64,000 nt of DNA from an uncultured delta proteobacterium (GTDB lineage Bacteria; Myxococcota; UBA727; VGSZ01): positions 211,582-275,581 of the forward strand of contig CAVZJB010000018.1 in the NCBI GenBank assembly GCA_963775425.1, read 5' to 3'. Positions 44,467-64,000 of this stretch are shown one piece after another. The position numbers were made by a program, and so were the translations under genes. Under the pieces are notes generated by a model, which had not been told where the DNA came from, did not search any database, and saw only the letters and a program-made list of their open reading frames with translations. Position 1 is the stretch's first letter. Each line of letters opens with the position of its first letter.

Positions 44467-45243
44467 ATGAACGAGCGCACCATCGCCAATCACTCCGGCG
44501 CCCCCCGCCACCCGTCGACGTGGCGGACGTACCTCGTCCTCGCGCACACGCTCTCCGGCTCGGCCAGGATCGCGGCGCGCGCGGCAATGGGCCAGCTCGA
44601 GCGCGACGACGTCGAGCGGGTCCTGCAGCGCTGGACGCGACATATCTTCGACATCTCCGAGCTCACGCTCGTCGCCACCGGCCTCGACAACGTCGCCGGT
44701 GGCGGCCCCTGCGTCATCCTGTGCAACCACGTGTCGCTCCTCGACACGCCGTGCATCGTGGCGAGCTTCCCGGGCTCGGTGCGCTTCATCTCCAAAAAGG
44801 AGCTGCGGCGCGTGCCGGTGTTCGGCAAGGCCATGGAGGACGCCGGCGTCGTCTTCGTCGACCGCGAAAACCGCGAGAAGGCCATCGGCCAGCTCGACGG
44901 CGCCAAGCGCCTGCTGCGCGACGGCTACGCGCTGTGGGTGGCGGCCGAGGGCAAGCGCTCGCGCGACGGGCGGCTGCACGCGTTCAAGAAGGGCGCGTTC
45001 CACGTCGCCGTGGAGCTCGGCGTGCCCATCGTGCCGGCGTGGATCCAGGGCACGCTCGACGTCATCCCGCCCGATCAGTGGCGGGCGTGGACGGGCCAGA
45101 AGGTGACGGTGGCGTACGGCGAGAAGGTGTCCACCGAGGGAAAGACCCGCGACGACATCCCCGCGCTGATGGACACGGTGCGCGCGCGCATGCTCGCGCT
45201 GGCGTACGCCTGCGGCGCGCCCGCCGACGTCGACGCCGCGTGA
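44467..45243 (+). CDS. 1-acyl-sn-glycerol-3-phosphate acyltransferase (PlsC-like)
   Basis: NHVSLLD (HX4D), FVDR, AEGKRS, FKKGAF. Confidence 0.9.
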   Translation: MNERTIANHSGAPRHPSTWRTYLVLAHTLSGSARIAARAAMGQLERDDVERVLQRWTRHIFDISELTLVATGLDNVAGGGPCVILCNHVSLLDTPCIVASFPGSVRFISKKELRRVPVFGKAMEDAGVVFVDRENREKAIGQLDGAKRLLRDGYALWVAAEGKRSRDGRLHAFKKGAFHVAVELGVPIVPAWIQGTLDVIPPDQWRAWTGQKVTVAYGEKVSTEGKTRDDIPALMDTVRARMLALAYACGAPADVDAA

Positions 45244-45349
45244 AGCGGTCGCCGCGCTGGCGCGGTTTTGGGTGTGGGCGCCGGATCACGTCGGCGTAGG
45301 CGGCGCTCGAAGTCGCGAGCAGCCGTTCGGGCGCTCTATCCTGGCGTCG

Positions 45350-48300
45350 ATGCGCAGCGACGGCGAATTCGCGGGGACCGAACGCTTCAGCGTGCGTCGC
45401 CGGCTGGGCAAGGGAGGAAACGGCGTCGTCTATGAGGCGCTCGACCGCGAGCGCAACGCCGTCGTCGCGTTGAAGACGCTGCAGAGCGCGGAGCCCGGAG
45501 CGCTCTACGCGTTCAAGAAGGAGTTTCGCTCTCTCGCGGACCTCTCGCACCGAAACCTCGTCGCGCTGCACGAGCTCCACGCCGAGGGCGACGTGTGGTT
45601 CTTCACCATGGAGCTGGTGCACGGCCGTCACTTCGCGGAGGCGCTGCAGGGAAAGCCCGTCGACGAGCACGGCTGGCTGCCGCGCCGGACCGCCAAGCCC
45701 GAGCTGCTCGGGAACGACGCCACGCTCCTGCGCGACCGCGTCGGACAGCTCGCGCTCGGCTTGCAGGTGCTTCACCGCGCCGGCAAGATCCACCGCGACA
45801 TCAAGCACCAAAACGTGCTCATCGACGACGACGGCCGCGTGGTCATCCTCGACTTCGGCCTGGTCACCGACGTCGACGCCAGGAACATCGCCGCCACCAT
45901 CGACCGCTCCGGCACCCCGCCGTACATGTCGCCCGAGCAGCTCGTCGGCGAGCCCGTCACGCAGGCGTCCGACTGGTACTCGGTGGGCATCATGATCTAC
46001 GAGGTGCTCACGGGGCGCCGGCTCTTTCGCGGCGACTACCAAAACGCCTTCCGCGAAAAGACCACCGCGAGCCTGCCGCCCGTGCGCACGGTGGCGCCGC
46101 GCGCGCCGCCCAATCTCGCCGAGCTGTGCGACGCGCTCGTCGACCGCATCCCGCAAAACCGGCCGGCCGGCGACGACGTGCTCCGCGCGCTCGCCGGCGG
46201 CGACGCGGCGGCGGCGCCGCCGCCCGGGCGCGCGGCGTCGTCGACGGAGAGCGAGCTCGTCGGCCGCGAGGGCGAGCTCGCGGGGCTTCATCGCTCGTTC
46301 AGCCGCACCTACCAGGGCGCGAGCGTCGTCACCTTCGTGCACGGCGCGTCGGGGGTCGGCAAGAGCGCGCTGGTGCGCCGCTTCCTCGAGGAGGTGAGGG
46401 CGTCGGACCGCAGCGCGGTGGTGCTGCGTGGGCGCTGCTACGAGCGCGAGAGCGTGCCGTACAAGACCCTCGACGGCGTCGTCGACGCGCTGAGCCGCTT
46501 CCTCAACAACCTGCCGCTCGACGAGCAAAAGGAGCTGATGCCCACCGAGGTGTCGGCGCTCATGCGCTTGTTCCCCGTGCTCGGCCGGGTGGAGGCGGTG
46601 GCGACCGCCAGGCGGCGCGTGGGCGCGGAGCCCGACGCCGTGGAGGCGCGCCGCCGCGGCTTTCAGGCGCTGCGCGAGCTGTTCGTACGCCTCGCCGCGC
46701 AGCGACCGCTCGTGGTGGTCATCGACGACCTGCAGTGGGGCGACTTCGACAGCGCCGGCCTGCTCGACGAGATCTTGCGGCCGCCGGGCGCGCCGGCCTT
46801 CTTGCTCGTCGGCGTGTTTCGCTCGGAGGAGCGCGACACGAGCCCGTTTCTGCGGCGGCTGTTGTCGGCGGACAAGACGTGGCTCGCCGACGTCGAGCAA
46901 GAGGAGCTCGCGCTGGCGCCCCTCGCCGGCGCCGACGCCGCGCGACTGGCGCGCCTGCTGCTCGCGGAGCACGGTCCCGTCGACGAGGCGCGCGCGGCGG
47001 AGATCGCCGCGGAGGCGGGCGGCCTGCCGTTCTTCATCGCCGAGCTCGTGCGCTTCGCGGCGTCGGGCGCCGTGATCGCCCCGCGGTCCGACGGCGCTCC
47101 CGTCGACGCCGGCGCAAGGCTGGATCTGCGCGCGGCCATCCTCGCGCGGATCGAGCAGCTCCCGGACGAGGCGCGCCGGCTGGTGGAGGTGGTGGCGCTC
47201 GCGAGCAAGCCCGTGGATCGCCGGGTGGCGGTCGCCGCCGCCCGCGTCACCGGCGACGACGAAAAGGCGCTGCACGCGCTGCGGGCGGGTCACCTCTTGC
47301 GCGCGCGCACCGAGGGCGAGCGCACGCTCCTCGAGAGCTACCACGATCGCATCCGCGAGGCCGTCGTCGAGGGGCTCGCGCCCGACGCGCGCCGCGACAC
47401 GCACGCGCGGCTGGCGGCGGCGCTCGAGGCGGCCGGCGCCGGCGACGACCCCGAGGCGCTCGCGCACCACCTCTTCGGCGCCGGCGAGCGGGACCGCGGC
47501 GCGGCGCAGGCGCTGCTCGCGGCGGACGACGCGGCGGCCAAGCTCGCCTTCGACCGCGCCGGGCGCCTGTACGGGCTGGCGCTCGACGCCACCGCCGCCG
47601 ACGACCCCGCCCGCCGCGGCATCCTCGAGCGCACGGGTCGCGCGCTCGCGAACGCGGGCCAGTGCGCGGAGGCGGGCAAGGCGTTCGTCGAGGCCGCGGC
47701 GCTCGCGCCGCCGCTCGAGGCGCGCGAGCTGCGGCGCGAGGCGGCGGAGCTGTTCTTGTTGAGCGGCCGGATGGACGAGGGGCTTGAGATCATCCGCGGG
47801 CTCCTCGCCGGCGTCGGCATGAGCATGCCGCGCACGCAAACGGGCACGCGCCTGTCCTTCGTGTGGAACCGCGCGCGCCTGTGGCTGCACGGGCTCAAGT
47901 GGCGCGAGCGCGACGAGAAGGACGTCGACAAGGACGATCTGTTCCGCATCGACGTCTGCCGCTCCATCGCCACGGGCCTCCTGTCCGGCGGCGACGCGCT
48001 CGCGGTCCTCGACTTCTCCGCGCGCAGCACGCTGTTGTCGTTGAAGGCCGGGGAGCCCCGCCGCGTGGGCCTCGCGTTGGCGACGGAGGCGGGCGCCGTG
48101 GTCTCGCTGAGCGGCGCGCCGGCGGCGCAAAAGGCCGACGCCATCGTCGCCGTCGCCCGCGGGCTCGCCGAGCGCTTCCCCAATCCCTCGCTCGACGCCA
48201 ACGTGAGCGTGAGCCGCGGGACGCTCGGCTTCTGGGCGTACCGTTTTCGCGCGAGCCTCGACGACCTCGACGCGGGCGAGCGCATGCTCCGGGAAAACTG

Positions 48301-49114
48301 CGCGGGCGTGTGGGCCACCATCTCGTACGTGGGCTTCCTGCGGCTCGGCGCATACCTCGCGCTGGACGAGTGGAAGAAGCTCGCGCGGCGCGCCGCCGAC
48401 GACGTCGTCGAGGGCGTGGAAAACGGCGACGCGTTCCTGGTGGAGAGCCGGCGCACGTACCTGTCGCTGGCGTCGTTGATGAAGGACGACGTCGACGGCG
48501 CGCGGGCGGCGTTTCACGGCGTGCGCGAGCGTTGGTCGCGCCAGGGCTATCAGGTGATGCACTGGCTCTCGCTCTACTTCGCCGTGCTCGCCGAGCTGTA
48601 CGCGGGCGATGCGGCCGCGGCGCACGCGAGGCTCCACGGCGAGTGGGACAGCGTGCGCCGCTCGCTGCTGCTGCGCGTGCCGATCATCCGGACGTACGCG
48701 CTGCAGTTGCGCGCGAACGTGTCGCTGGCGACGGCGGCCGCCGACAGCGCTGCCCCGTCGTCGTCGACGCGAGCACATCTGCGCGCCGCGCAGCGCGACG
48801 CGCACCTGCTGGAGCGCGCGGGCACGCCGTGGTCGGCGGCGCGCGCGGTGTTGGTGCGGGCGCAGGTGGCCTCGCTCCAGGGGGACGCGGCGTCGGCGCG
48901 CGCGCTCCTCGAGCAGGCGGTGGCGAGCGCGCACGACGCCGACCTCGCCGTGCACGAGGCCGTCGCCCTCCGCCACGCCGGCGCGCTCGCCGGTGGCGCA
49001 GAAGGGAAGGTCGACGTCGACTCCGCCGACGCGTTCCTCAAGGCGCAGGGCGTCGCGCGCCCCGCGCGCATCGCGGCGATGCTCGCGCCCGGCTTCCCGT
49101 CGACGACGGAGTGA
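45350..49114 (+). CDS. Ser/Thr kinase fused to AAA/STAND-type ATPase and helical repeats
   Basis: HRDIK, DFG, Walker A GASGVGKS, IDDLQWGD, GGLPFF. ATG 45350. Confidence 0.92.
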   Translation: MRSDGEFAGTERFSVRRRLGKGGNGVVYEALDRERNAVVALKTLQSAEPGALYAFKKEFRSLADLSHRNLVALHELHAEGDVWFFTMELVHGRHFAEALQGKPVDEHGWLPRRTAKPELLGNDATLLRDRVGQLALGLQVLHRAGKIHRDIKHQNVLIDDDGRVVILDFGLVTDVDARNIAATIDRSGTPPYMSPEQLVGEPVTQASDWYSVGIMIYEVLTGRRLFRGDYQNAFREKTTASLPPVRTVAPRAPPNLAELCDALVDRIPQNRPAGDDVLRALAGGDAAAAPPPGRAASSTESELVGREGELAGLHRSFSRTYQGASVVTFVHGASGVGKSALVRRFLEEVRASDRSAVVLRGRCYERESVPYKTLDGVVDALSRFLNNLPLDEQKELMPTEVSALMRLFPVLGRVEAVATARRRVGAEPDAVEARRRGFQALRELFVRLAAQRPLVVVIDDLQWGDFDSAGLLDEILRPPGAPAFLLVGVFRSEERDTSPFLRRLLSADKTWLADVEQEELALAPLAGADAARLARLLLAEHGPVDEARAAEIAAEAGGLPFFIAELVRFAASGAVIAPRSDGAPVDAGARLDLRAAILARIEQLPDEARRLVEVVALASKPVDRRVAVAAARVTGDDEKALHALRAGHLLRARTEGERTLLESYHDRIREAVVEGLAPDARRDTHARLAAALEAAGAGDDPEALAHHLFGAGERDRGAAQALLAADDAAAKLAFDRAGRLYGLALDATAADDPARRGILERTGRALANAGQCAEAGKAFVEAAALAPPLEARELRREAAELFLLSGRMDEGLEIIRGLLAGVGMSMPRTQTGTRLSFVWNRARLWLHGLKWRERDEKDVDKDDLFRIDVCRSIATGLLSGGDALAVLDFSARSTLLSLKAGEPRRVGLALATEAGAVVSLSGAPAAQKADAIVAVARGLAERFPNPSLDANVSVSRGTLGFWAYRFRASLDDLDAGERMLRENCAGVWATISYVGFLRLGAYLALDEWKKLARRAADDVVEGVENGDAFLVESRRTYLSLASLMKDDVDGARAAFHGVRERWSRQGYQVMHWLSLYFAVLAELYAGDAAAAHARLHGEWDSVRRSLLLRVPIIRTYALQLRANVSLATAAADSAAPSSSTRAHLRAAQRDAHLLERAGTPWSAARAVLVRAQVASLQGDAASARALLEQAVASAHDADLAVHEAVALRHAGALAGGAEGKVDVDSADAFLKAQGVARPARIAAMLAPGFPSTTE

Positions 49115-49194
49115 CGCCTCGCAGCACGCGCTCCGTTCGTGCGTGAGCGGCTGATCCCGGCGGCGGCGGTGAGTGCGGTCGCTATCCCAATTGC

Positions 49195-49482
49195 ATGAGG
49201 TTGCTCGCCGTCGTCGTCGTCGTTGTCGCCGCGTCACTCGCATGTGCGTCGTGCGGACCGCCGCCGGACCCCACGCCCGCGCTCCGCCGCGCGCGCGCGA
49301 GCGCCCGCCAGCGCGCCGCCCGCGCCGCCCGCCACGACATGCGCCACCTCTACAGCCGCGACAACGCCCGCGCCGACGACAAGAGCACCGTCGGTGACGA
49401 CGACAACGCGGCCGGTGACGACGACACGGTCGGCGAGGGCGAGGGCGAGGGCGAGGGCGAGGGCGAGGGCGAGGCCGAGTAG
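49195..49482 (+). CDS. Small lipoprotein with GE tail
   Basis: Hydrophobic signal with Cys, acidic GDDD motifs, C-terminal (GE)n. Confidence 0.55.
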   Translation: MRLLAVVVVVVAASLACASCGPPPDPTPALRRARASARQRAARAARHDMRHLYSRDNARADDKSTVGDDDNAAGDDDTVGEGEGEGEGEGEGEAE

Positions 49483-49693
49483 CTCCGCTCGCGATCCACG
49501 GCCTCGATCGGGGCAGCGCCGCCGGTGCCGTGCCCGGGCTCATGACCGGAGATTCCGGACGCCCGGTGCGGTGCGTCGAAAACCATCGGTCGGTGATCCG
49601 GCCTCGGTCGATCTTCCGCGTCCTTTTCTCCGGCGGTCCGAAAACGAGGTGCGACAACCTCTCACCTGGGCCTACTGCCCGACCGGACCCGCC

Positions 49694-52432
49694 ATGCGCT
49701 TCGCCGCCCTCCTCCTCGCCCTGCCGCTCGCCGCCTGCGTCTCCCAGGTGAAGCCCCCGCCAGCCCAAAGCGACCCGCAGCTCCCCATCGGCGAAGGGGA
49801 AGGAGAGGGAGACGCCCCGCCGCCCAAGGACGATCCCCCCGACGACCCGCCCCCCGCCCCCGCCGTCTGCGGCGACGGCGTCGTCCAGGGCGGCGAGGTC
49901 TGCGACGGCCACGACCTCGGCGACGCGAGCTGCGACCGCCTCGGCTTCTCCGGCGGCACCGTCTCCTGTGACTCGCACTGCCAGCTCGACCTGAGCGCCT
50001 GCACCTCTGCCCCCGTGGATCCGCCGCCCCCCGTCGGCGCCGCCACCCCCATCGCCGCCCCCGGCGGCACCGTCACCCTCCAGGGCTCGCTCGACCTCAC
50101 CGATCCCTCGTGGACGCGGCCCGGCGCGGACTGCACCGCGTCGTCGTCGACCAGCCGCCACTACGACGTCTTCCAGGTCGTCAACAACACCGGCTCCGCG
50201 CAGACCATCACCGTGAGCGCCACGTTCACCGGCGACGGCTACCTGCACGCCTACGGCTCCGTCTTCGACCCCGCGTCTCCCGAGAGCGGCTGCCTCGCCG
50301 GCAACGACGACGGCGACGGCACCCAGGACAGCCGCCTCGAGGCGGTCGCCATCCAGGCCGGCGCCGTGGTCACGCTCGTGGTCTCGACCTTCGCGGCGGA
50401 CACCGCCCTCGGGCCGTACACCCTCGACGTCGTCACCGACGACGGCAGCGTCACCCCGCCACCGCCGGACGACAACGTCTGCGGCGACGACGTCGCCGCC
50501 GGAGCCGAGGTCTGCGACGGCGGCGACGTCGGCGGCGACACCTGCGGCGCGCACGGCTTCAACCGTGGCAGCCTCGGCTGCGACGCGAGCTGCGCCGCGG
50601 TCGACGCGACCGGCTGCTTCAACGTCGCCGGCCCGAACGACATCGCGCCGCGCGGCTCGTCCATCGTGCTGAGCGGCAACATCGCCGACACCGACGGGAC
50701 GTGGAGCCGGCCCTCCGAGGACTGCGGCGCCGGCGCCGCCGACGCCACGCGCTACTTCGACGCGTTCGAGATCGTGAACCGCACCGGGCAGACGCAGGCG
50801 CTCGACGTCACGGCGACGTTCTCCGGCGACGGCTACCTCCATGCGTTCACGAGCTTCGACCCGCGCGACCCCACCACGGGCTGCGTCGCCGGCGACGACG
50901 ACTTCAACGGCAGCAGTGCGTCGCAGCTCACCGACGTCGCCATCGGCGCGGGGCAGACGCTCACCATCGTGGTGTCCACGTTCGCGGCGGACGCCGCCAT
51001 CGGCACCTACTCGCTGCAGGTCCTCACCAAGCAGCCGACCGCGCCCGCCGTCTGCGGCAACGGCGTACGCGAAGGAAACGAGGTGTGCGACGGCGCCTCC
51101 GTCGGCTCCTCGACCTGCCAGAGCCGCGGTCACCAGGGCGGCACGCTCTCGTGCAACTCGAGCTGCAGCGCCGTGAGCGAGAGCTCGTGCTGGGACCTCG
51201 CGCCGGCGGTGCCCATCGCGGGCCAGAACGGCTCCATCGCGCTCGGCGGCTCGCTGACGTCGACGGACCCGCGCATCGACCGCGTGAGCGCCACCTGCTC
51301 GGGCAGCGGCGCGGCGGACCACCCGTGGGACGGCTACCGCATCGTCAACAACACCGGCGCGGCGCAGTCGCTCACGGTGACGGCGTCGTGGTCGGGCGGT
51401 GATGGCTTCCTGCTCGCGTACCACTCGAGCTTCGACGCCGAGTCGCCGCTCACGGGCTGCATCACCGGCAACGACGACTTCGGCGGCGCCTCCGGGTCGC
51501 AGATCACCGACCTCGCCATCGCGCCCGGCGAGACCCTGGTGCTCGTCGCGAGCACGTTCGCCGGCAACGCCACCGTCACCAGCTACGACATCGAGGTGGC
51601 CACCAACGGCCCGCCGCCGACGGCCATCGGCAACGCCGGCATCACGGTGCAGCTCGCGGGCTCCCTCGACGCCAGCGACCCGACCTTCGAGCGGCTCTCG
51701 GAGTCGTGCTCGTCGACGGGGGCCACCGGCCGCAGGTTCGACGCGTACCGTGTGAAGAACACGACGAGCACCTCGCAGCGCCTTACGCTTCAGGGCAACT
51801 GGTCCGGCGACGGCTTCCTCTTCGTGTTCGGCTCTTCCTTCAACCCCGCGAGCCCCGCCGCGTCGTGCCGCCTGGCCAACGACGACTTCAACGGGCAGGA
51901 CGCGAGCCGCATCACCGGCGTCAACATCGCCGCCGGGGAGACCGTTGTGGTGGTGGCCTCGACGTTCGCGGCGGGCGCCACGCTCGGCGCGTACACCATC
52001 GACGTGCTGACCGAAGGGACCGCGACGCTCGCGCCGCCCGGCGGCAGCATCACCACCGCCGGCGCCCTGCACACGAGCGACCCGCAGTGGAACCGCCCGT
52101 CGGAGAGCTGCACCGACGACGGCGGCACCGCCGAGAACCACTACGACACCTACCTCATCAAGAACGCGAGTAGCGTCGAGCGCGACCTGAACATCACCGC
52201 CAACTGGGGCAGCGGCGATGGCTTCCTCGTGGTGTACTTCGGCGCCTTCGATCCCGCCGACGGCGCAGGGCTCCAGTGCATCGAAGGCGACGACGACTTC
52301 AACGGCGTGTCGGCCTCACGCCTCGCGGACGTCATCATCTTCCCCGGTGAGACGCTCACGGTGGTGGCGACGACGTACGCCGCCGCAGCGACCATCCCTG
52401 CCTACACCGTGCGCGTCGACACTCTGCAGTAG
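49694..52432 (+). CDS. Large surface lipoprotein: 3 myxobacterial Cys-rich repeats and 5 PPC-like beta domains
   Basis: Lipobox LAAC; VCG(D/N)..EVCDG x3; DG(Y/F)L..F(D/N)...C...(N/D)DD repeat x5. ATG 49694. Confidence 0.85.
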   Translation: MRFAALLLALPLAACVSQVKPPPAQSDPQLPIGEGEGEGDAPPPKDDPPDDPPPAPAVCGDGVVQGGEVCDGHDLGDASCDRLGFSGGTVSCDSHCQLDLSACTSAPVDPPPPVGAATPIAAPGGTVTLQGSLDLTDPSWTRPGADCTASSSTSRHYDVFQVVNNTGSAQTITVSATFTGDGYLHAYGSVFDPASPESGCLAGNDDGDGTQDSRLEAVAIQAGAVVTLVVSTFAADTALGPYTLDVVTDDGSVTPPPPDDNVCGDDVAAGAEVCDGGDVGGDTCGAHGFNRGSLGCDASCAAVDATGCFNVAGPNDIAPRGSSIVLSGNIADTDGTWSRPSEDCGAGAADATRYFDAFEIVNRTGQTQALDVTATFSGDGYLHAFTSFDPRDPTTGCVAGDDDFNGSSASQLTDVAIGAGQTLTIVVSTFAADAAIGTYSLQVLTKQPTAPAVCGNGVREGNEVCDGASVGSSTCQSRGHQGGTLSCNSSCSAVSESSCWDLAPAVPIAGQNGSIALGGSLTSTDPRIDRVSATCSGSGAADHPWDGYRIVNNTGAAQSLTVTASWSGGDGFLLAYHSSFDAESPLTGCITGNDDFGGASGSQITDLAIAPGETLVLVASTFAGNATVTSYDIEVATNGPPPTAIGNAGITVQLAGSLDASDPTFERLSESCSSTGATGRRFDAYRVKNTTSTSQRLTLQGNWSGDGFLFVFGSSFNPASPAASCRLANDDFNGQDASRITGVNIAAGETVVVVASTFAAGATLGAYTIDVLTEGTATLAPPGGSITTAGALHTSDPQWNRPSESCTDDGGTAENHYDTYLIKNASSVERDLNITANWGSGDGFLVVYFGAFDPADGAGLQCIEGDDDFNGVSASRLADVIIFPGETLTVVATTYAAAATIPAYTVRVDTLQ

Positions 52433-52507: not shown

Positions 52508-53533
<1,026 letters not shown>

Positions 53534-53591
53534 GGCGAAGGCCCGGCTCGATCGGGGATGGGCGACGGAAAATCGACGGACGCCTCGGAGC

Positions 53592-53990
53592 GTAGGGCGG
53601 GGGCTTGTCCCCCGCATCCCCACGCGCGCACCCGCCGACGGAAAAGGCCGTTCGATAAAGCCGCTTGCGGCTGGCGGAAAAACCGCTGGACGATTTGCGA
53701 ACCGCGCTGCGTAGGGCGGGGGCTTGTCCCCCGCATCCCCCCGCGCACCCGCCGACGGAAAAGGCGTGGGACGAGCCCCCGCCCTACGGGTCCTCGATCG
53801 TGGCCGACGTTTACTCGCCGTCCGATAAAGCCGCTTGCCGCTGGCGGAAAAACCGCTGGCCGATTTGCGAACCGCGCTGCGTAGGGCGGGGGCTTGTCCC
53901 CCGCATCCCCCCGCGCACCCGCCGACGGAAAAGGCGGGAAACGAGCCCCCGCCCTACGGGTCCTCGATCGTGGCCGACGTCGCGAAGAGC
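53592..53990. repeat. GTAG-type REP/REPIN array A (170-bp period)
   Basis: GTAGGGCGGGGGCTTGTCCCC at 53592, 53711 and 53881; inverted partners GAGCCCCCGCCCTAC end at 53787 and 53957. Confidence 0.88.
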
Positions 53991-54210
53991 GCACCCGGTG
54001 TGACGACTTTTCAAACGGCCCCGCGGAGGATCGGCGACGGGTGATGGGCGACGCGAGAAGATCGAGGAGACGAGGAACGAGGAACGAAGAACACGAGGTG
54101 CGCTGACGCGACATCGACTCGGACGCTCGGCCGGCGGCCAGCGGATCGCGGCCGGCGGAGATCGGACCTCGACGCGCGGCGAGGCCGAGCCCCGCCGCGC
54201 GCGCCGAGCC

Positions 54211-54543
54211 TCAGCGAAACTTGTAGAGCATGGCGCAGAAGTGGTCGCAGCGGTCCTGGCCGACGTCGCGCTCCGCGGCGGTGACGGCCTCGCTCAGGAA
54301 CCCGATGTCGAGGATGGCGCTCACCTCGCGCGCGCTCCCGGCGGCGATGTCGAAGTACCGCGCGCGCTCCTTCGCCGACTGCTTGCGACAGCCCTCGGAG
54401 AAATTGAGCGTGATGGATGACGACGCGCGGCGCAGTTGGTCCTTGAGGTCCGCGAAGCCCGGCGGGAACTGCTTCGCGAGCTGGAAGCACTGGCCGTAGA
54501 TCTCCAGCGACTTCCCGTAGAGGCGAGTGTCTCGGTAGTCCAT
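54211..54543 (-). CDS. Four-helix-bundle protein (23S rRNA IVP / Avd-like), copy 1
   Basis: LKDQLRRASSSITLNFSEG...YFDIAAGSARE family motif; GAAGGAGG RBS; ATG 54543. Confidence 0.88.
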   Translation of the reverse strand: MDYRDTRLYGKSLEIYGQCFQLAKQFPPGFADLKDQLRRASSSITLNFSEGCRKQSAKERARYFDIAAGSAREVSAILDIGFLSEAVTAAERDVGQDRCDHFCAMLYKFR

Positions 54544-54826
54544 GTTCAATCCTCCTTCGAAGGCCGAGCACGGCGGCCTTCAAAGCCTGCGTGGCCGCCG
54601 CGCGCAGGCCGAGAAGGAGGACGAACATGGCCTCGGGGTCACTCGCCGTTTCAGGAAGTGCTGTCGGTCGTAGGCCGGTTCTCGACGAGAGAGTGCTCGC
54701 GCTTCATGGCCTGGCCCGTGTGGTCTTCGCGAACCCCGACGTGGGGCCCTCAAGCGCTTCGCGCTTTTGACGAGGGCCCCACGTCGGGGATCCGCAAGGA
54801 GACCAGGCCATGAAGCACGAGCACTC
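54505..54826. promoter_or_regulatory. Two long inverted repeats covering the translation start regions of both four-helix genes
   Basis: 54505-54565 pairs with 54607-54663 (imperfect); 54691-54714 pairs with 54803-54826 (23/24) and 54734-54751 with 54772-54789 (18/18). Confidence 0.75.
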
Positions 54827-55142
54827 CCGCATCTACCTCACCTCTCGCGCGCTCAACCGCGAGGCCGCCGCGCTCGCCAACCGGCTGCCGCGTGGCTTCA
54901 GCAACCTGAAGGACCAGCTTCGCCGCGCGTCGGCCTCGGTGACGTTGAACTTCTGCGAGGGGAGCCGGCACGAGTCGCTCGCGGAGCGTGGGCGCTACTT
55001 CCGGATCGCGTCCGGGAGCGCCGCCGAGGTGAGCGCCATCGCGGATGTCGCGGAGGACTTCGGCGTCATCGCTCCCGAGCAGCACGCGGCCATCAAGGAC
55101 TACTGCAATCACCTGTGCGCGATGCTGCGGCTGTACCGGTGA
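54810..55142 (+). CDS. Four-helix-bundle protein (23S rRNA IVP / Avd-like), copy 2
   Basis: LKDQLRRASASVTLNFCEG...YFRIASGSAAE; AAGGAG RBS. Confidence 0.88.
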   Translation: MKHEHSRIYLTSRALNREAAALANRLPRGFSNLKDQLRRASASVTLNFCEGSRHESLAERGRYFRIASGSAAEVSAIADVAEDFGVIAPEQHAAIKDYCNHLCAMLRLYR

Positions 55143-55350
55143 TGGCCGCTCGGCGGCGGAGCTCTGCGGAGCTTCGCCGCTCTCTCGATCGGGAAGGGCG
55201 ACGCGAGAGATGCGGGAGGGGTCGAGGGCCCGCCAAAACAGCACACGAGGACACGAGGGACACGAGGGCGGCCCGGATCGGATCCGCGGCCGGCGGCAAG
55301 CGGCTCGCGGCCGGCGGAGATCGGAGCGAGATCGCCCCCAGGCTCAACGT

Positions 55351-55992
55351 GTTCGAGACGCGCGCCCTGTGTGACGATTTGCGAACCGCGGTGCGTAGGG
55401 CGGGGGCTTGTCCCCCGCATCCCCACGCGCACCCGCCGACGGAAAAGGCGGGGGACGAGCCCCCGCCCTACGGGTCGTCGACGTAGCCGACGTCGCGAAT
55501 GGGTTCGAGACGCGCGCCCTGTGTGACGATTTGCGAACCGCGGTGCGTAGGGCGGGGGCTTGTCCCCCGCATCCCCACGCGCACCCGCCGACGGAAGAGG
55601 CGGGGGACGAGCCCCCGCCCTACGGGTCGTCGACGTAGCCGACGTCGCGAATGGGTTCGAGACGCGCGCCCTGTGTGACGATTTGCGAACCGCGGTGCGT
55701 AGGGCGGGGGCTTGTCCCCCGCATCCCCACGCGCACCCGCCGACGGAAAAGGCGGGGGACGAGCCCCCGCCCTACGGGTCGTCGACGTAGCCGACGTCGC
55801 GAATGGGTTCGAGACGCGCGCCCGGTGTGACGATTTGCGAACCGCGGTGCGTAGGGCGGGGGCTTGTCCCCCGCATCTCCACGCGCGCCCCCGCCGACGG
55901 AAAAGGCGGGGGACGAGCCCCCGCCCTACGGGTCGTCGACGTTGCCGACGTCGCGAATAGGTTCGAGACGCGCGCCCGGATGGAGGATTTTT
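55351..55992. repeat. GTAG-type REP/REPIN array B (152-bp unit x4 plus partial)
   Basis: Units start at 55351, 55503, 55655, 55807 and 55961; each full unit holds an inverted REP pair; near-identical, with no spacers. Confidence 0.92.
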
Positions 55993-56004
55993 GGACTGGG
56001 TGCG

Positions 56005-56355
56005 CTACTCGGTGAGCTTCGGGTGCTTCGTCGACGCGTAGGTCATGACGACGCGCTTGCGCTTTGCATCCACGCAGTACCAGACGCGGCCTCCCGCGGT
56101 GACTTCGTATTGCCACTGCTCGAGGTCCTCGCCAGCGATGCGGGCGGTCGCCAGCTCACCGCGGAGTCGATGCTGCCGGCCGAGCCGCGCTGTGTCGCGA
56201 GGATCCTTCGAGATCGCATCGAACGCATCGCGCGTCGGCCCGGGTGCTTGGCGCACGAGCTCTTCCCACCCATTCGCCGCGTCGCTGTTGCCAAAGACGA
56301 GCTCCCACTCGTCGGCCTTCGGCGGCGGCGCTACGCGATCCCCGCGCTTGGCCAT
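56005..56355 (-). CDS. Putative RelE-like toxin
   Basis: 116 aa; RQHRLRGEL...QWQYEVTAGGRVWY; directly downstream of an antitoxin-like gene. Confidence 0.68.
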   Translation of the reverse strand: MAKRGDRVAPPPKADEWELVFGNSDAANGWEELVRQAPGPTRDAFDAISKDPRDTARLGRQHRLRGELATARIAGEDLEQWQYEVTAGGRVWYCVDAKRKRVVMTYASTKHPKLTE

Positions 56356-56807: not shown

Positions 56808-57189
56808 GCAGACATTATTCAGATGTTATGCGGATGTCGCAAGCGATCCTGCAACCGCGCGAGATCGAACGAGAAGCGCGCCCGGTGTGACGATTTTGAG
56901 ACCGCGTTGAGCAAGAACGACGTCGACAACTGAGCTGTCCGGACGCAAGCGACGCCGAAGGCGGCGCGCAGCGGGGGAGTGAGGGGGGCCCGCGTCCGGC
57001 TTTGCCGGCGCGGGGGAGCGAACCGGAGGTTCGCTCCTCGGCGAGCGCATGCGAGCCGACAAGGAAACGCGCGCCCGGCTTGAGGATTTTCGAAACGACT
57101 GTCGAGACGCCGCTCACAGCGGCACGATGCTGCGCGTCGGAACCATCCGCACATAGATGGTGACGAGGTTTTTGGATGTTGCGATCAGC

Positions 57190-57717
57190 TTATCATCGGA
57201 CGGGAGTTGCGCCCGACGCGTAGAATCACTGCGGCGACGACTCCGGAATTGGTATCCCCCAACGAGCCTGCAAATTCTTCGCGCGCAGGTCGACCGGCGT
57301 CACCTCGAACCCAACCGGTTTTAACCGCGTGGCGATGTGCGCCCGCAGCTTGGCCACGCGTTGTCTGAGTTCGGCGGTCCCCGCCAGTACAGAACATAAC
57401 CAGACGCAGACTGGCTGATCGTCAAGTAGATGCCCGTGCAGTCCAGCGCCGCGCACGAGGTACGCGACGTAAACGCCCTCGCTTGTCTTTGTGGTCTCAG
57501 CGCGTCAAGCACAGCCAGCCAAGGCACGGTTGCCCACCTCCCTTGGCCCGCCGACCACCGGACCGTGAGCCGAGAATCCAGGTTCATCTCCATGATCTCT
57601 CGGCTGCGCGACGAAAGAGCGGGCGCGCCGGGTGGTCTCGCCGCACGGTGGGCTCCCGCGCGGACGCTTGGGAACAATTCCAACCCGTCCAAGCGTGTTG
57701 GCGAACTCGTCTTTCAT
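57190..57717 (-). pseudogene. DUF3578 / McrB N-terminal-like domain, frameshifted
   Basis: VRWSAGQGRWATVPWLAVLD and GIYLTISQ motifs; ORF broken across frames. Confidence 0.65.
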
Positions 57718-57817
57718 TCAGTGACCACGAGCCGTCCGTTCTACTGCGCCTTCTCAGAGCCAGCCGAATCTCCGCGATGAACTCTTCCCGCCGGACGGCA
57801 TCGTGAACGTGCATGCG

Positions 57818-58984
57818 CTAATGAGGCGCAAAAATGTGGCGAGCCGGGTGGAAACACCTCGCACGTGTAGTCAACGGCCGTCGAGCGCGACATTTGAAGG
57901 AGGGAGCCTTCCGGAATTTTGAGCGAAGGTCCGGAGAGATGGTCACGTTCGAATTTCGCTTTTCGTCTCGTAATACACTGTATTCAACGGGAAGCTTGAG
58001 ACCGCATAGCTCGCCTTGCCCGCTTTGTCGTAGACCACCCAATCCGTGAGCGGGTCCGGGGTCTGCTGCGGATAGGACGGGTTGCCCGCCTTTTTCGGCG
58101 TTGTCTTGCCTTTGAACGGAAATCCGAAGAACGCCGGATGCTGGTTGACGGCGAGCTTGCTTAGGAAGACCTCGCCATTGTGATGCGGAACAATCTCCAT
58201 CAGCAGCGCCCGAGGCACCGATACGAGCTTCGTACCGCTTTTCTTCTTGGGCGCGCCGGCCGCAGCAGTCGAAGCGGCGCCATGGACAGCGGCTGCCTTC
58301 GGCCGCGGACGCGGGCAACAATCGGAGTCGAGGGGAAAAAGACCGGGGTTTGAGGTCGTCCATGCTTTGCCGAGGCGCGCTCCGCCGCCGCTCCTCGTCG
58401 CAGACTCGTCGAAGAGCAGTCCGTCTTTCATCAAGGCGTCGAGAAGCGCGTCTGTGACCTTGAGAGCGTTCGGATGGCCGGCGAGCGACGACCACCCAGC
58501 CCTGAAGGGCGCCCACAGGGATTCTTCCCCTGGAAGCTTTGCCTCGAACGAGATGCTCGACTCGGAGTTGGTCTCCGTCCCTCCTAACGTCAAGTTGTGC
58601 GAGCCGACAAGCACGGCACCGGACGTTTTCCCTTCGAATAAGTATATCTTAGAATGGAAGGTAACGAGCGAGCTTGGATGCTGCCAAATCCTTACCGTCT
58701 TGAAATCTTGCTAGCGCGAACCTGAGGGCTTAGACGGACGTGCCAACCTGGTCGATGCCAAAGATTGCGTCGACCTCGCCTCCGCGCGCGGAGAACGCAG
58801 TGATCGCCTGCTCCAAACGGAGGAGCGGTGCCTCCTTCGCGTAGGCAACCGCGATGCGGAGGCTTGTGTACGCGTTGTTCTTGAGACCCTGCTCGATCCA
58901 ATCGAGCCCCCGCCGCACGCCAAAGGGCTGATCGAGTGGCGCGAAGAACTGGATGTTTGGCACTGCCCATCTTCCCACGGTCAC
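57818..58984 (-). pseudogene. PLD-family (HKD) restriction endonuclease-like gene, disrupted as assembled
   Basis: LRIAVAYA..IFGID..GTS, then FHSKIYLFE...VGSHNLTLGG...N.E; in-frame stop at 58730 plus frameshifts; ends approximate. Confidence 0.75.
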
Positions 58985-59063
58985 GGACCTCCTCGTTTTT
59001 TCGTTGGCGAGAAACTCGGGCGCGGTGGTACAGCCCAGACTATGACCGGAACATCTGTTCAGC

Positions 59064-61826
59064 ATGACCTCCCCGAAACGTCCAAGAACCGAGCTGCGGA
59101 AGATCTCGCGTCGCTGACACAACTACGTGATGCAAAAGGTGTTCTGGAGAGACTTGGTCGTGTCGATGGGGATTTCACGACGACGACACCTCGTACCTAA
59201 CCCACGACCTCCACCCCTATCCGGCGAAGTTCATCCCACAGATCCCTTCGACGTTGGTTCGAGCTCTTTCCCTCCGTGGAGAACTCGTTTGGGATCCGTT
59301 CTGCGGCTCGGGAACGACGGGACTTGAGGCCCTCAGACTTGGGCGACGGGTCGTCTGCACGGACATCAACCCGCTGGCCGTCCTGATCACCTCCAGCAAA
59401 ATCGACGGCGCTCACACCAGAAGAACGCCTCGAGCTCGCCGAGCTTCGTGAACGAGTCGTCCTCCTCACTCAGGCGGGCGATTGTCGTCGACAGGTGGAG
59501 CGTCACGCGGCCCGAGCTGAGCGATTCGTTCCAACAATTCCAAACATCGAGCATTGGTTCTCTCAGCTCGCGATTCGCGAACTTTCATATCTACTGATGG
59601 AAATCGAAACCATTGATGGTGAAACCGCACGTGCCTTTGCGAGAGCATGCTTCTCATCAATCATCGTGAACACTTCAAACCAAGACGAGGAGACGAGGTA
59701 CGCACGGCGGGAAAAGGATTGTCTCGTCAGGCGAGATCCTTACGATGTTCTCGAACGCGCTTGATCGGAACCTGCAAAAGCATGAGCCACTCGAGCGACT
59801 CCTCGGTTATCGGAAGGTCGAGACACATCTCTTGGACGCTCGCGACCTGGATGACGTTGGTGCTGTCAAGGACGGGTCGATCGACCTCGTCGTCTGTTCG
59901 CCCCCGTACGCAAATGCAACCGACTATCATCTGTATCACCGATTCCGGTTGTTCTGGCTTGGCTTTGATCCACACGAGATGGCACGCGCGAGATCGGCTC
60001 TCACCTGCGTCATCAGCGCGAGAAAGCGGGCTTCGAGCTGTACGAAACGGAGATGCGCCGAGTGTTGGTGCGGTTCTCGGCAGCGTTGCGAGCTGGACGC
60101 TATGCAGCGCTGGTTGTCGGTGATTCTGTATTCGCGGGCAAGACGATCCGCACAGCCGATGTTCTGCTTGAAGCAGCCGCAGCATGCGGCCTCGAGGCGG
60201 TGGGCTCACGTCGGCCGGTTCACCCGACCAAACGCTCATTCGTCGTCGCGGGTCGTCGAGCTCGAATCAGAGGACATCGTTCTTCTACGAAAGCCGCCGA
60301 AACGCCTGAAGGTGTTCCTCGGTGCGCCGAAATATCGGCTCTGGCCGTACGAGGAGCGCCTGCGGCGAATGGAAGCATCAACGTTGCTCAAAACGAAATT
60401 GCCGGACACGATCGAACTTCAATCGGAGGTCGATTGTTATGAGGTAAATCGAGTTCGTCGACTCACCTTCACGCGTGATGTGCACCTCGACGGTGAGTGC
60501 GCCCGGCCAACATGGCAGGCGGCACTGGAGTCGAGCGACCCTGCAAGCAACCGCAAGGACCCCAAATACCTGACGCACGGAAATTCATCCCTACAAAGGA
60601 AAGTTCTACCCACAGCTCGCCAAGTCCTTGCTGAACATCTCCGGCGCGGAGCCGGGCGCAACCGTTTTCGATCCCTTCTGTGGCAGCGGTACCGTGCTCC
60701 TTGAAGCGCAGCTGAGCGGGTTTCGCGCAGGAGGCTGCGATGTTCACCCACTGGCCATCCTGATCTCTCGCGCGAAGACAGCCGTGGCGCTCGAGAGCGC
60801 AGTTCTTCTAGAATCGTGCTCTCTCCAATTTCGGGAGGGCCACCAGTTCGGACAAGAGCAAGGAATCGGATCGAGCCTTTTTCCGCGCGGACCTCCTGAT
60901 AGAACTTGAGAGTTGGTTCCCTGCGCCGGTCGTTCGAAAGCTCGGCTGGTTGCGGCACCAGATTGAACGTGTCCAGTTCGACCGCGCGGCTTGTGTTGCT
61001 CGTTCTGCTCTCAAGCATCATTCGGGAGGTCTGACACCAGATCCTGGGGATCTGCGAATCCGCCGTCGGAAGGAGCCTCTTGAGGACGCGCCCGTTCTTG
61101 AGATGCTTGCTGAACGCCTCTCGCTCTTTCGGGGTCGGCTCCTACAGTTTGAGCGCCAGCGTGCGTCGGCGCCATTCGAGTTCCAGCCCGCTCACGTCTT
61201 CGAGATGAACTCGCGCGACCTGGCCACACAAACCGCTCTTCGCAGCAGCGTCGATGTTGTCATCACGAGTCCGCCGTATGCGACGGCCTTGCCATACATT
61301 GATACCGATCGCCTCAGCCTTCTCGCTGTTCTCGATCTTGCCTCCAGTGATCGGGCTGTGCTTGAAGGAAGGCTCACGGGATCGCGCGAGATTCGCGGCG
61401 GTGAGCGAAAGCGCTTGGAGGCTGAGATCCGCGATCCGAAGAAGCTTCGCGCGCTGGGATCCCGGACCGCCGAAGGTATCATTCACGGGATTCTCGATCT
61501 GAAATTCCAGTGCTGACGTCGGGTTTCGACGGCAGAACATGGCGGCACTACTCCTTCGCTATTTTCGTGACATGCGCTTGGTATTCGAGAGCCTCAAGAG
61601 CGTCGTCCGCACAGGCGGCGATGTCTTTGTCGTCATCGGCAACAACAAGACCACCGCTGGAGGGCAGGAGATCGAGGTCGAGAGCACCACCGCTCTGATC
61701 GAACTTGGCGCTAGCGTCGGATGGGCGCTTGAGGATGTCATCGGAATTTCGGTCACGAAAGAAGCGCTTGTCCACGCGCGCAACAGCATCTCCGAGAACG
61801 CCGTACTCTGGTTCAAGGCGAGCTAG
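59064..61826 (+). pseudogene. Double-domain amino (probably N4-cytosine) DNA methyltransferase, multiply frameshifted
   Basis: Two sets of motifs: PAKFIPQ/DPFCGSGT/SPPY (59220-59910) and HPYKGKFYPQ/DPFCGSGT/SPPY (60586-61280). Confidence 0.8.
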
Positions 61827-61936
61827 GACGCCGGCGTCCTCGAAAAAAGGTGTCAGCATGACGGGGGTACGGAGGTGACACTTTCAACGTCGACAAGCCG
61901 CTGCTTTCACTGCGTTTGACACCAAATTGACGATGT

Positions 61937-62112
61937 GCCAGCGACCTCCAGACTCACGCCCAATAAGGGCATTCGCCTGCCGGCACCCTTCGGGTGTCGC
62001 TGACGCGACGGGCCGGTACGCGCTGGCAAGTCCGCAATAGCGTCCATGCCATCGCTCGCCGCACACGCAACAGCGTGTGTCGCTTCGCGACGAGCGGCGG
62101 GAGGTCGCTGGC
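61937..62112. repeat. 176-bp element with 13-bp terminal inverted repeats, copy A
   Basis: GCCAGCGACCTCC...GGAGGTCGCTGGC; direct homolog at 63433-63606. Confidence 0.85.
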
Positions 62113-63293
62113 CACGAAGCACTTCAACATCGAAGCGCACAACGAGGCGAAGCGGTACGATCGCCGCGTGGGAAATTCCGGAGCGCGTTCTCGGCATCGA
62201 TCTCGCACAGAGCTGGCAGAACACAGGCTCGGCGTTGATCGAATTCGATCGTGCAGCGCAGTCCATCATCAGCGTCGTCGCTCCTGCACTCGGGTGGCCG
62301 GGCGGATCGTTCACAGCAACCGCCGTCGCCGACGCGATCGACGGCTTCGCTCGCAAGCAGAAGGTGACAGCGGTCGCGCTCGATGGGCCGCAAGGATGGC
62401 GCGACCCTGCGACGCCGTCATCCCTGAAGGGCGTCGGGCGGCGCTGCGAATACGAGTGCCGGACCCAGGCGAAGACGGGCGTTCACCCAACGACGTTTCC
62501 CGGAAACCAGCGCCCGTGGATCGAGCTCTGCGTGGAGATCTTCGACGAGCTCGCGCGGAAGCCCGGGGTTGTCGTCGGGAACGTCGGCGTCGTCGCTCCC
62601 GGAACCGGCTACGTGATTCTCGAGTGCTTCCCGACCTCCGCTTGGCGGGCAAGCGCTCTCACGCCGCTTCCATCGAAGAAGAAGCACCCCGTGCTCGCGA
62701 GCTACACGGCGGCGCTGCGTTCGGCGTTCGTCCTGCCGGCGCTGACGCCAGGAAGCCACACACACGATGACCTGCAAGCGGCGGTTGCCGCACTGACGGC
62801 GATGGCGTTTGTCGGCGGACCAGCGATCCCGATCGCACGCGGGGTTCCCGCTGCCGCCGCCGTCGGCGCGGACGGGGTCTCGCGTCGCGTCGAGGGCATC
62901 ATCTGGGACGCAAGGCCGCTTTCGATCTCAGCGGCGGTTGGTGCGAACGCGCCACCGCTCGCCAAGCCACCGTCGCCGTCGGCTGGGACTGCGGCAGCGC
63001 TTCCCGCGGTCTACGTGAGCACGAGCGCACTCGCGCACGCGAACTCGACGAAGAACCGGAGCCAGATGCAGATCGTCCTCGCAGGCCTTCCCGGTGGAAC
63101 AAAGGCGAAGCGCATCAAGCTTCGACTCGTCATCGATGACGAGCGCTACATCGTCGTCGTTGGCGACTCGCATGCAGCGTGGCGATCGCACCAGACTGAT
63201 GAGACGCTCGATGACTTCGACACCCTCTTTGCCAACCTTGCGGACACGGCGGACGAGCGCCGCGCACTCGAAGACTTCGCCATCCTCCCGTAG
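62046..63293 (+). CDS. DUF429-like RNase H-fold nuclease with extra C-terminal domain (true start probably near 62170)
   Basis: VLGIDLA, VALDGPQGW, RRCE, LECFP, DDLQA. Confidence 0.72.
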   Translation: MPSLAAHATACVASRRAAGGRWPRSTSTSKRTTRRSGTIAAWEIPERVLGIDLAQSWQNTGSALIEFDRAAQSIISVVAPALGWPGGSFTATAVADAIDGFARKQKVTAVALDGPQGWRDPATPSSLKGVGRRCEYECRTQAKTGVHPTTFPGNQRPWIELCVEIFDELARKPGVVVGNVGVVAPGTGYVILECFPTSAWRASALTPLPSKKKHPVLASYTAALRSAFVLPALTPGSHTHDDLQAAVAALTAMAFVGGPAIPIARGVPAAAAVGADGVSRRVEGIIWDARPLSISAAVGANAPPLAKPPSPSAGTAAALPAVYVSTSALAHANSTKNRSQMQIVLAGLPGGTKAKRIKLRLVIDDERYIVVVGDSHAAWRSHQTDETLDDFDTLFANLADTADERRALEDFAILP

Positions 63294-63432
63294 CTCCCGC
63301 GCGCCAGGGCGCGGGACGCCAGCGTCCCGTCAATTGGTGTCAATTGGTGTCAGTACAATGGGGAGGCACATGCGACACTTCTTGAGGCGCTACATCGCCG
63401 AATCAAAAGCATGTGACACGTACTGACGTGGC

Positions 63433-63606
63433 GCCAGCGACCTCCAGACTCACGCCCAACAAGGGCATTCGTCTGCCAGCACGCTCCGCGTGTCGCGCTG
63501 AGGCGCGACGAGCCGGCCGCGCTGTCGAGTTCGCAACGGCGATCTCGTCTGCGCTCACCGCACGCTTCGCGTGTCGCTACGCGACGGGCGGCGGGAGGTC
63601 GCTGGC
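63433..63606. repeat. 174-bp element with 13-bp terminal inverted repeats, copy B
   Basis: Same termini and first ~60 bp as copy A; diverged centre. Confidence 0.85.
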
Positions 63607-63730
63607 GAAATCCATCGATCTGGTGACCGCGTGCGGGACGACACGCAGCAGGGGCTCGGGCTCGAGCAACACGAAGCTGCGCCGTCACCATCGCCCGCGA
63701 AGTGCGGGGCGACGGCGACGGCGACACGAA

Positions 63731-63967
63731 ATGCGGCGAGCGCGCTCGGCTCGATCGCCGACGTGTGTGCTGGAGGTGCTCATGCTGCTGGAAGAAACGC
63801 CGAGCGGAAACCTGCGCATGTATTCGCCGGCGAACCCTGAGGGTGCCGTGCGCTTCACGCGCGCCGACATTCAAACGATTGCCAGCGTCTTCGAGCTGCT
63901 CGACCGATGGGCTCAGGACGACGCGACGACGGGGAACGCGATCGGTGACGTTCGCTCCCCGTCGTGA
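63731..63967 (+). CDS. Small hypothetical protein
   Basis: Coding-like 3' part of ORF 63413-63967 downstream of repeat copy B; start uncertain. Confidence 0.35.
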   Translation: MRRARSARSPTCVLEVLMLLEETPSGNLRMYSPANPEGAVRFTRADIQTIASVFELLDRWAQDDATTGNAIGDVRSPS

Positions 63968-64000
63968 TCTGATCTTTCTCAGCGAGGTGAACATGAACGT

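Follow-up and report, generated by a model that had tools for sequence, protein, structure and literature searches.

Why would two neighbouring small genes each be preceded by an inverted copy of their own translation start, so that each start can fold into a long hairpin? The question is raised by a divergent gene pair in the window, the stretch of 64,000 nucleotides analysed here, which is high in G+C (the G+C content of the genome is 0.72). Both genes belong to PF05635 (23S_rRNA_IVP), a very widespread family of small genes that has been known since rRNA intervening sequences were described and for which we know of no function outside retroelements. The pair and the predicted structures at its 3' ends are the following.

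54211-54543, minus strand: gene 1, four-helix-bundle protein of 110 aa, ATG at 54543, PF05635/TIGR02436
54810-55142, plus strand: gene 2, four-helix-bundle protein of 110 aa, PF05635/TIGR02436
54173-54201, minus strand: G+C stem-loop 3' of the gene 1 stop, 13 bp, without a U tract (predicted fold)
55153-55180, plus strand: stem-loop 3' of the gene 2 stop, 12 bp, without a U tract (predicted fold)

The genes are divergent paralogs with 46% protein identity, and the Shine-Dalgarno sequence (SD) of gene 1, GAAGGAGGA, stands immediately 5' of its ATG at 54543. Their family assignment is well above the profile cut-offs, both for PF05635 (gene 1, E 9e-19 and 68.1 bits; gene 2, E 5.5e-18 and 65.6 bits; cut-off 33.8) and for TIGR02436 (67.7 and 61.7 bits, respectively; cut-off 24). 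By sequence, 2GSC (E 1e-20 with a profile of 15 relatives) and 2RLD are the closest proteins of solved structure, and Avd itself gave no sequence match at E <= 0.001. Gene pair, starts and hairpin arms lie where the initial annotation had placed them, and the stems that it had reported at the 3' ends of both genes are likewise present. A scan of 53900-55500 for promoters and terminators returned no promoter-like and no terminator-like site.

The surroundings of the pair offer a first part of the answer. The segment 53583-56004 (C18:265164-267585) recurs in its own genome, with homology to the other copies beginning at 53583, and the locus represents one of several copies of a repeat-bounded element whose only cargo is the divergent gene pair. 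The repeats that bound it are arranged as listed below.

53583-54028: left repeat block, comprising one short unit, two variant units of 170 nt each and an incomplete unit of the 152-nt repeat family
54029-54179: segment R, left copy, a direct repeat of 55193-55325, with ACGAGG-type short-period repeats at 54057-54092
55193-55325: segment R, right copy, with ACACGAGG-type short repeats inside
55351-56004: 152-nt tandem repeat in 4.1 copies (55351-55977), right end of the element

A 170-nt period is evident at 53647-53980 within the left block. The 152-nt unit combines a paired-hairpin module with a degenerate version of the 3' end of a tRNA-Arg, and this repeat is almost confined to the flanks of these elements, with 18 full units in the genome. 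The ends of the window element are therefore direct repeats containing a tRNA-Arg 3'-end-like segment, and the flanks beyond them consist of protein-coding DNA and repeats. No rRNA match was found in 53300-56300, even at E <= 1. The genome contains five intact copies of each gene in all, together with decayed derivatives; the other loci are as follows.

Contigs C10 and C16: complete pairs, with 96-97% identity over the whole length and 99% in the core
Contig C6: copy with an internal deletion in gene 2
Contig C13: rearranged and duplicated copy
Contig C2: copy without gene 1, its deletion junction 54243|54568 in common with C13
Contig C11: remnant with neither gene left
Contig C6: decayed solo copy
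Contig C3: repeat-only locus

Within these copies, 35 columns vary over about 960 nt and core identity is 98-100%; the own-genome copies hold no informative compensatory changes. Codon changes among the intact copies are mostly synonymous (10/12; gene 1 4/5, gene 2 6/7), and purifying selection acts on both proteins. The proteins must therefore be made at least sometimes, so that any lock on their translation has to be conditional.

The placement of the element can be compared with that of a tRNA-targeted integrative element, which sits at the end of a tRNA gene and is bounded by a repeat of that end. Three of the eight loci adjoin tRNA-Arg genes (CCT, TCT and ACG), with the tRNA 3' end toward the element; the window itself holds no tRNA. 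Three other loci, including that of the window, adjoin low-G+C islands, which in the window lie to the right of 57000. The alignment of the 152-nt unit with the tRNA 3' end is only a loose one, and of 12 Phage_integrase matches genome-wide, none stands beside any element copy, several of which lie at contig ends.

The second part of the answer lies between the two genes, where two leader hairpins face each other.

54506-54663, minus strand: leader hairpin 1, with 3' arm 54578-54506, 5' arm 54663-54593 and loop 54579-54592
54684-54833, plus strand: leader hairpin 2, with outer arms 54684-54714 and 54803-54833, inner stem 54734-54751 and 54772-54789, and loop 54752-54771

The 3' arm of hairpin 1 includes the SD of gene 1 with its ATG and some 12 codons, for which the initial annotation had noted an inverted copy at 54607-54663, and its arms juxtapose 55 Watson-Crick pairs, 5 G.U, 2 A.C and 9 other combinations. 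The outer arms of hairpin 2 are 31 nt long, 87% complementary and span the start codon of gene 2 with 8 codons; the SD of this gene (54797-54802) is located just 5' of the outer arm and inside the extended 3' arm, and the inner stem is perfect over 18 bp. The second inverted copy, also noted at the outset, is likewise present. As RNA, hairpin 1 is predicted to fold with -108.3 kcal/mol (54490-54680, minus strand, 191 nt) and hairpin 2 with -114.8 kcal/mol (54670-54850, plus strand, 181 nt); for each the z score is -9.91, and 0/200 shuffles are as stable. The predicted minimum-free-energy folds pair the SD and the AUG of both genes, and a consensus structure with covariation agrees. Moreover, the inverted-repeat score of the start region reaches 35 for gene 1 and 43 for gene 2, compared with a 95th percentile of 22 for control ORF starts and random positions. 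Rfam returned only sub-threshold microRNA-like matches for the hairpins. None of the listed sequencing runs was RNA, and four DNA metagenome runs contained small shares. In the own genome, the leader hairpin is confined to copies of the element.

Is such a hairpin a peculiarity of one locus or a habit of the family? Homologs were gathered as 52 loci from the genome collection, with a 5-sequence alignment as query, together with loci from 41 related genomes, and the region from -200 to +100 around each start was scanned, a score of at least 30 being taken as a strong hairpin. In this sample, whose 52 loci are biased toward relatives of the window genes, 28 of the 49 scorable genes reach that score, and so do 20 of 41 without the tight divergent pairs; among the starts of neighbouring ORFs at these loci it is 4 of 177. 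The inverted-repeat score of the start region gives the same contrast, with at least 26 in 24/49 genes versus 2/181 control ORF starts and 11/686 random positions. Furthermore, the 3' arm covers positions -13 to -7, the place of the SD, in 15/20 strong leader hairpins as against 1/4 control hairpins. The genes are kin, and at 60% protein identity they fall into 32 clusters, 8 of which have a leader hairpin outside tight pairs. The hairpin is missing in about half of the sampled genes (21/41), and the leaders of the convergent pairs in G040 are mixed, with z from -0.2 to 9.6 against shuffles. A different arrangement, in which the arms bracket the whole gene, was observed in 10 of 43 scored genes (9 clusters) versus 7 of 282 random segments. 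It is absent from the window genes, both of which score 20, a background value next to a control median of 19 and a 95th percentile of 26. Across lineages, from G+C-rich Myxococcota-type to A+T-rich Bdellovibrionales-type MAGs, the stem sequences are wholly different, and the stem ends always pair a CCTCC-like with a GGAGG-like sequence, that is, an anti-SD with an SD.

Some of the leaders could also be aligned with one another. The alignment holds seven sequences, namely those of both window genes, three near-identical copies from the genome G004 and one each from two other genomes, and its consensus hairpin has 34 pairs, 18 of them with compensatory changes. Paired cells amount to 87.1% compared with 75.2% in shuffles (0/500 reach the observed value) and at most 56.9% in slid controls, and the 18 pairs changed on both sides compare with 8.1 in shuffles (0/500), all these figures coming from few related sequences and from a structure that was itself drawn from this alignment. 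The window leaders and those of other genera have in common a conserved apical stem and the loop motif TTGA[ACG]G. Since the leaders align to one consensus, the two window hairpins are homologous and predate the duplication from which the pair arose. As judged from these alignments, the leader hairpin is ancestral to the family members compared, co-varying, and a conserved architecture rather than a product of chance. Inverted start copies with covariation, the pattern that the initial annotation had in mind for four-helix-bundle genes, are thus found. Its view that architecture is conserved and not sequence is borne out in part, as the arrangement recurs in several genera with different stems; its statement that the two window hairpins share no obvious sequence does not hold, for both align with each other and with leaders of other genera. 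The loop motif was also considered as part of a promoter inside the loops, and this idea was dropped because no plausible -10 box lies 17 nt downstream.

How such a cassette may move is best seen in G004, which holds the closest homolog, 61% identical to gene 1. There, gene and leader hairpin sit together in a unit of about 770 bp with 17-bp terminal inverted repeats in 5/5 copies and direct target duplications of 8-11 bp, differing from copy to copy, in 4/5. No other gene and no transposase lies between the terminal inverted repeats. These ends and duplications point to DNA transposition, and in sequence terms the unit is the signature of a passenger-carrying miniature element (MITE) that has transposed as DNA. 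The window element is unlike such a MITE, since it has no inverted ends of the G004 type and is bounded by direct repeats; the G004 end motif, with up to 3 mismatches, has 36 matches in the own genome, none of them at an element copy. The cassette rides at least two kinds of mobile vehicle.

Taken together, we think it somewhat probable that the locus is a multi-copy, selfish-looking cassette with two IVS-protein/Avd-like genes under an ancestral translation-locking leader, silent by default. The 3' arm of the hairpin would hold the SD and, in the window, the start codon as well, together with the first 8-12 codons. A transcript spanning the whole leader would then have its initiation region in a duplex whose stability far exceeds what a ribosome can open, and the genes would remain silent by default, as a tolerated selfish cassette would need. 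Translation would require the 5' arm to be removed or opened, for which an RNase III cut of the long duplex, a transcript start inside the leader and a ribosome passing through the 5' arm are candidate releases. That the structure acts in mRNA and blocks translation is something we infer, and so are the means of lifting the block. A hairpin tied to translation signals, very stable stems and genes under selection fit a translation lock that is off by default, and structure-based control of expression is plausible as the most economical reading of the sequence.

This reading fits two known systems by analogy, the stem of the Coxiella IVS and the tnpA leader of IS200. In Coxiella burnetii, the SD of an S23p/PF05635 gene lies in the stem of the 23S rRNA intervening sequence (IVS) and is removed by RNase III, the protein is probably not made, heptamer repeats precede the start, and ORF-bearing 23S rRNA IVS are cited also for Leptospira, Brucella and Xanthomonas (PMC4990558). 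The window element resembles these rRNA IVS in the gene family, in being a selfish cassette around a long stem and, for Coxiella, in the SD held in that stem. However, it lies outside any rRNA gene, and both of its arms stand 5' of the ORF instead of bracketing it. Additionally, it carries two divergent genes, occurs in multiple copies as repeat arrays beside tRNA-Arg genes or low-G+C islands, and encodes proteins under purifying selection.

In IS200, a stem-loop in the tnpA 5'UTR (nt 69-138) sequesters the SD through an inverted repeat; by this means 30S binding is repressed and the element stays quiet (PMC4513863). The likeness is that of a small mobile element whose gene has its SD paired in its own leader, which for the window is a prediction. 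In contrast to tnpA, the cargo of the window element is not a transposase, and its stems, at two to three times the length, take in the start codon together with 8-12 codons. IS200 also has an antisense RNA, art200. A further comparison is the fold-back inhibition of IS10 and IS50, in which a transcript entering from outside includes a stretch that can pair with the translation start and so remains untranslated, and the promoter of the element itself lies downstream of the inhibitory segment. Unlike in IS10 and IS50, the promoter scan placed no promoter in 53900-55500 of the window. Lastly, a review describes PF05635 as resembling Avd of diversity-generating retroelements from a comparison of 2GSC with 4DWL, which makes for a related protein fold family (PMC10053308). 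The window pair differs from Avd in the missing sequence match given above and in having no reverse transcriptase within 150 kb. The repeats recorded around the pair are those that flank it as part of the element.

The module had initially been called undescribed and either RNA-structure-controlled or RNA-mobilised. Control by structure stands as plausible, with comparative evidence behind it; RNA mobilisation is not supported, and the novelty is partial, given the Coxiella IVS (PMC4990558). Hairpin-packaged IVS-protein cassettes and SD-sequestering leaders of mobile elements were already known, while the 5' leader hairpin, the divergent two-gene module and the tRNA-linked repeat vehicle are new here. 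In the freely available main texts of the literature, we found no account of leader hairpins, tRNA-linked arrays or inverted-end elements of PF05635 outside rRNA genes.

The palindromes may instead act as DNA, as extruded hairpins or cruciforms that are, or once were, sites of recombination, replication slippage or mobilisation, with the sequestration of the SD being incidental. We hold this to be unlikely, even though several observations suit it. The mismatches in the stems show no bias toward G.U over A.C (36 vs 34, p 0.9), and therefore nothing in them favours a sense RNA above a DNA palindrome. That the cassettes are mobile DNA is witnessed by the inverted repeats (17 bp, 5/5) and duplications (8-11 bp, 4/5) of G004 and by the near-identical dispersed copies in the own genome. 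Moreover, the two rearrangement junctions common to C2 and C13 are close to the hairpin loops (54568 is 10 nt from that of hairpin 1, 54748 is 3 nt from that of hairpin 2), as breakage stimulated by hairpins would give. However, the hairpin in G004 is internal to the element and not at its ends, and it is found in 4/5 four-helix-bundle cassettes (the fifth is deleted there) and nowhere else in that genome, so it is absent where the gene is absent. The tie of its position to translation signals, with the 3' arm over the SD in 15 of 20 strong hairpins, also argues against a role confined to DNA.

The arms might also be debris without function, the inverted copies at 54607-54663 and 54684-54714 being truncated 5' ends of lost head-to-head partners that gene conversion has kept alike. 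A non-regulatory origin of this kind does exist in the family: in the tight divergent pairs L058, L066, L070 and L071, the 'hairpin' is made of the facing 5' ends of two paralogs, whose first 17-25 codons are inverted copies of one another. The inverted copies in the window resemble gene starts, one of them with an SD-ATG, and the element family decays by deletion. On the other hand, the 5' arm of solo genes in other genera is an anti-SD followed by an unrelated stem and not a copy of the gene, and the leaders of genes 1 and 2 are homologous with those of three other genomes, with compensatory changes over the 34 pairs. Furthermore, the intergenic region is 98-100% identical among the own-genome copies, compared with 93-97% for the aligned elements as wholes. 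At 20-30 nt the arms are on the short side for gene conversion to work efficiently, which likewise counts against this explanation, and we regard it as quite unlikely.

The two short ORFs between the genes had suggested another model: cross-regulation by translated leader ORFs, each melting the hairpin of the neighbouring gene, and/or movement of the module through an RNA intermediate. Both ORFs exist. The longer of them is given here as a feature.

54627-54770, plus strand: leader ORF of 47 codons, opened by the mirrored SD-ATG of gene 1, ATG at 54627, stop at 54768-54770 inside the loop of hairpin 2

This ORF has a strong SD, traverses both 5' arms of hairpin 2 and ends 40 nt before the ATG of gene 2, so that a ribosome translating it could in principle open hairpin 2. 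Its counterpart on the minus strand (MKREHS..., 54707 to 54651) ends after about 12 nt of the 5' arm of hairpin 1 and has no SD, because the copy of the SD of gene 2 is degraded. With an SD on the plus-strand ORF only, the 'cross-wiring' is one-sided. An SD-preceded upstream ORF ending inside the hairpin was found in just 3 of 18 leaders. By symmetry, an inverted copy of an SD-ATG region makes an SD-ATG on the opposite strand, and the leader ORFs can thus be read as by-products; most likely, they are mirror images produced by the symmetry of the arms and not a designed feature, as the idea of cross-wired leaders would have them. Although the plus-strand ORF would suit an opening of the lock, the model of cross-regulation and RNA mobilisation is highly improbable, given the minus-strand ORF without an SD, the rarity of such upstream ORFs, the inverted ends and target duplications of G004 that speak for DNA transposition, and the nearest reverse transcriptase at more than 150 kb (the RVT_1 matches of the genome are at C18:1734, C18:106826 and C4:17304). 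For annotators, short 'leader ORFs' beside palindromes of this type are likely to be mirror artefacts.

With a translation-locking leader as the preferred reading, members of PF05635 would habitually carry either a start-locking leader hairpin or bracketing arms, and a vague 'hypothetical protein' becomes a defined selfish module that is open to direct tests. We would give only a small chance to the further idea that the four-helix-bundle protein binds its own leader hairpin, as RNA or as DNA, that this lets the cassette live in very different vehicles, and that two-gene modules encode a mixed oligomer reading two related hairpins. If true, such self-recognition would be the first function for a gene family that has gone unexplained since the 1990s. 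The vehicles named for it are intervening sequences of rRNA genes, elements bearing inverted ends and target duplications, repeat arrays linked to tRNAs, and retroelements. Two-gene modules recur among the homologs, being divergent in the window and tightly divergent or convergent elsewhere. Arrays of 7-base repeats were also seen upstream of several leader hairpins in homologs.

The family of genes 1 and 2 is also found as pairs in related genomes. G040, a genome of the same phylum, holds 34 matches to gene 2, many of them at contig starts, and 30 of these form 15 convergent pairs lying tail-to-tail with slight overlap. These pairs are a further multi-copy two-gene module of the four-helix-bundle family. 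In other relatives, tight divergent pairs are seen with start codons 60-96 nt apart, in which one gene's SD, ATG and first 17-25 codons are an inverted copy of the other's.

L040:1435-2107, L037, L042, L024: examples of G040 convergent pairs
L058:2607-3336, L066:2606-3273, L070:1795-2467, L071:2570-3225: tight divergent pairs

Gene 1 has its closest homolog in the related genome G004, where this homolog is the only cargo of a ~770-bp element. The element is bounded by 17-bp terminal inverted repeats in all five copies and flanked by target duplications of 8-11 bp in four. The cargo gene carries an in-frame stop in one copy and a frameshifted 3' end in another.

L045:2156-2921: G004 element, with further copies at L044, L046, L047 and L050

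In relatives, several leader hairpins are directly preceded by arrays of 7-9-nt repeats, and such arrays also occur inside the window's R segments, the direct repeats on either side of the gene pair (54057-54098; 55245-55270). These arrays resemble the heptamer repeats preceding the S23p start in Coxiella, as described in PMC4990558.

L053, L017: CGATTTT, five times
L049: 7-nt repeat, TCGATCA-type
L051, L055, L056, L057, L061: GCCGATN

In the window's own genome, tRNA-Arg genes (CCT, TCT, ACG) adjoin three copies of the repeat-bounded element holding genes 1 and 2, and no integrase gene was found beside these copies.

C16:21638-21714; C10:33423-33497; C11 near 796,100-796,250: sites where the element adjoins tRNA-Arg

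Since the 152-nt repeat (window array 55351-56004) contains a degenerate segment resembling a tRNA-Arg 3' end, its arrays look like stacked attachment sites. Two units also occur ~890 nt apart at C3:260077-261151 in this genome, with no four-helix-bundle gene between them.

Immediately next to the repeat/four-helix element, G+C falls from about 0.70 to 0.57-0.66 at three loci of the same genome, which suggests, from composition, that these stretches are horizontally acquired islands. Apart from the two features listed, the ORFs scanned in window 57000-64000 gave no family match.

Window 57000-64000 (reaching the contig end), C13:314-321 kb, C3:253-259 kb: low-G+C stretches
Window 57321-57692: MrcB_N fragment, in a low-G+C stretch
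Window 62046-63293: DUF429 gene, in a low-G+C stretch

Left of the element, window 52508-53533 (+) encodes a protein that looks secreted. In it, a GGCGAA repeat (52667-52851) gives rise to a long (Gly-Glu)n run, after which comes a match to the thrombospondin type 3 repeat. Further left, very long open frames overlap on opposite strands, 45062-52141 (-) versus 49223-52432 (+), as is typical for high-G+C DNA. The plus-strand frame spans 1069 aa with repeated Cys-rich modules.
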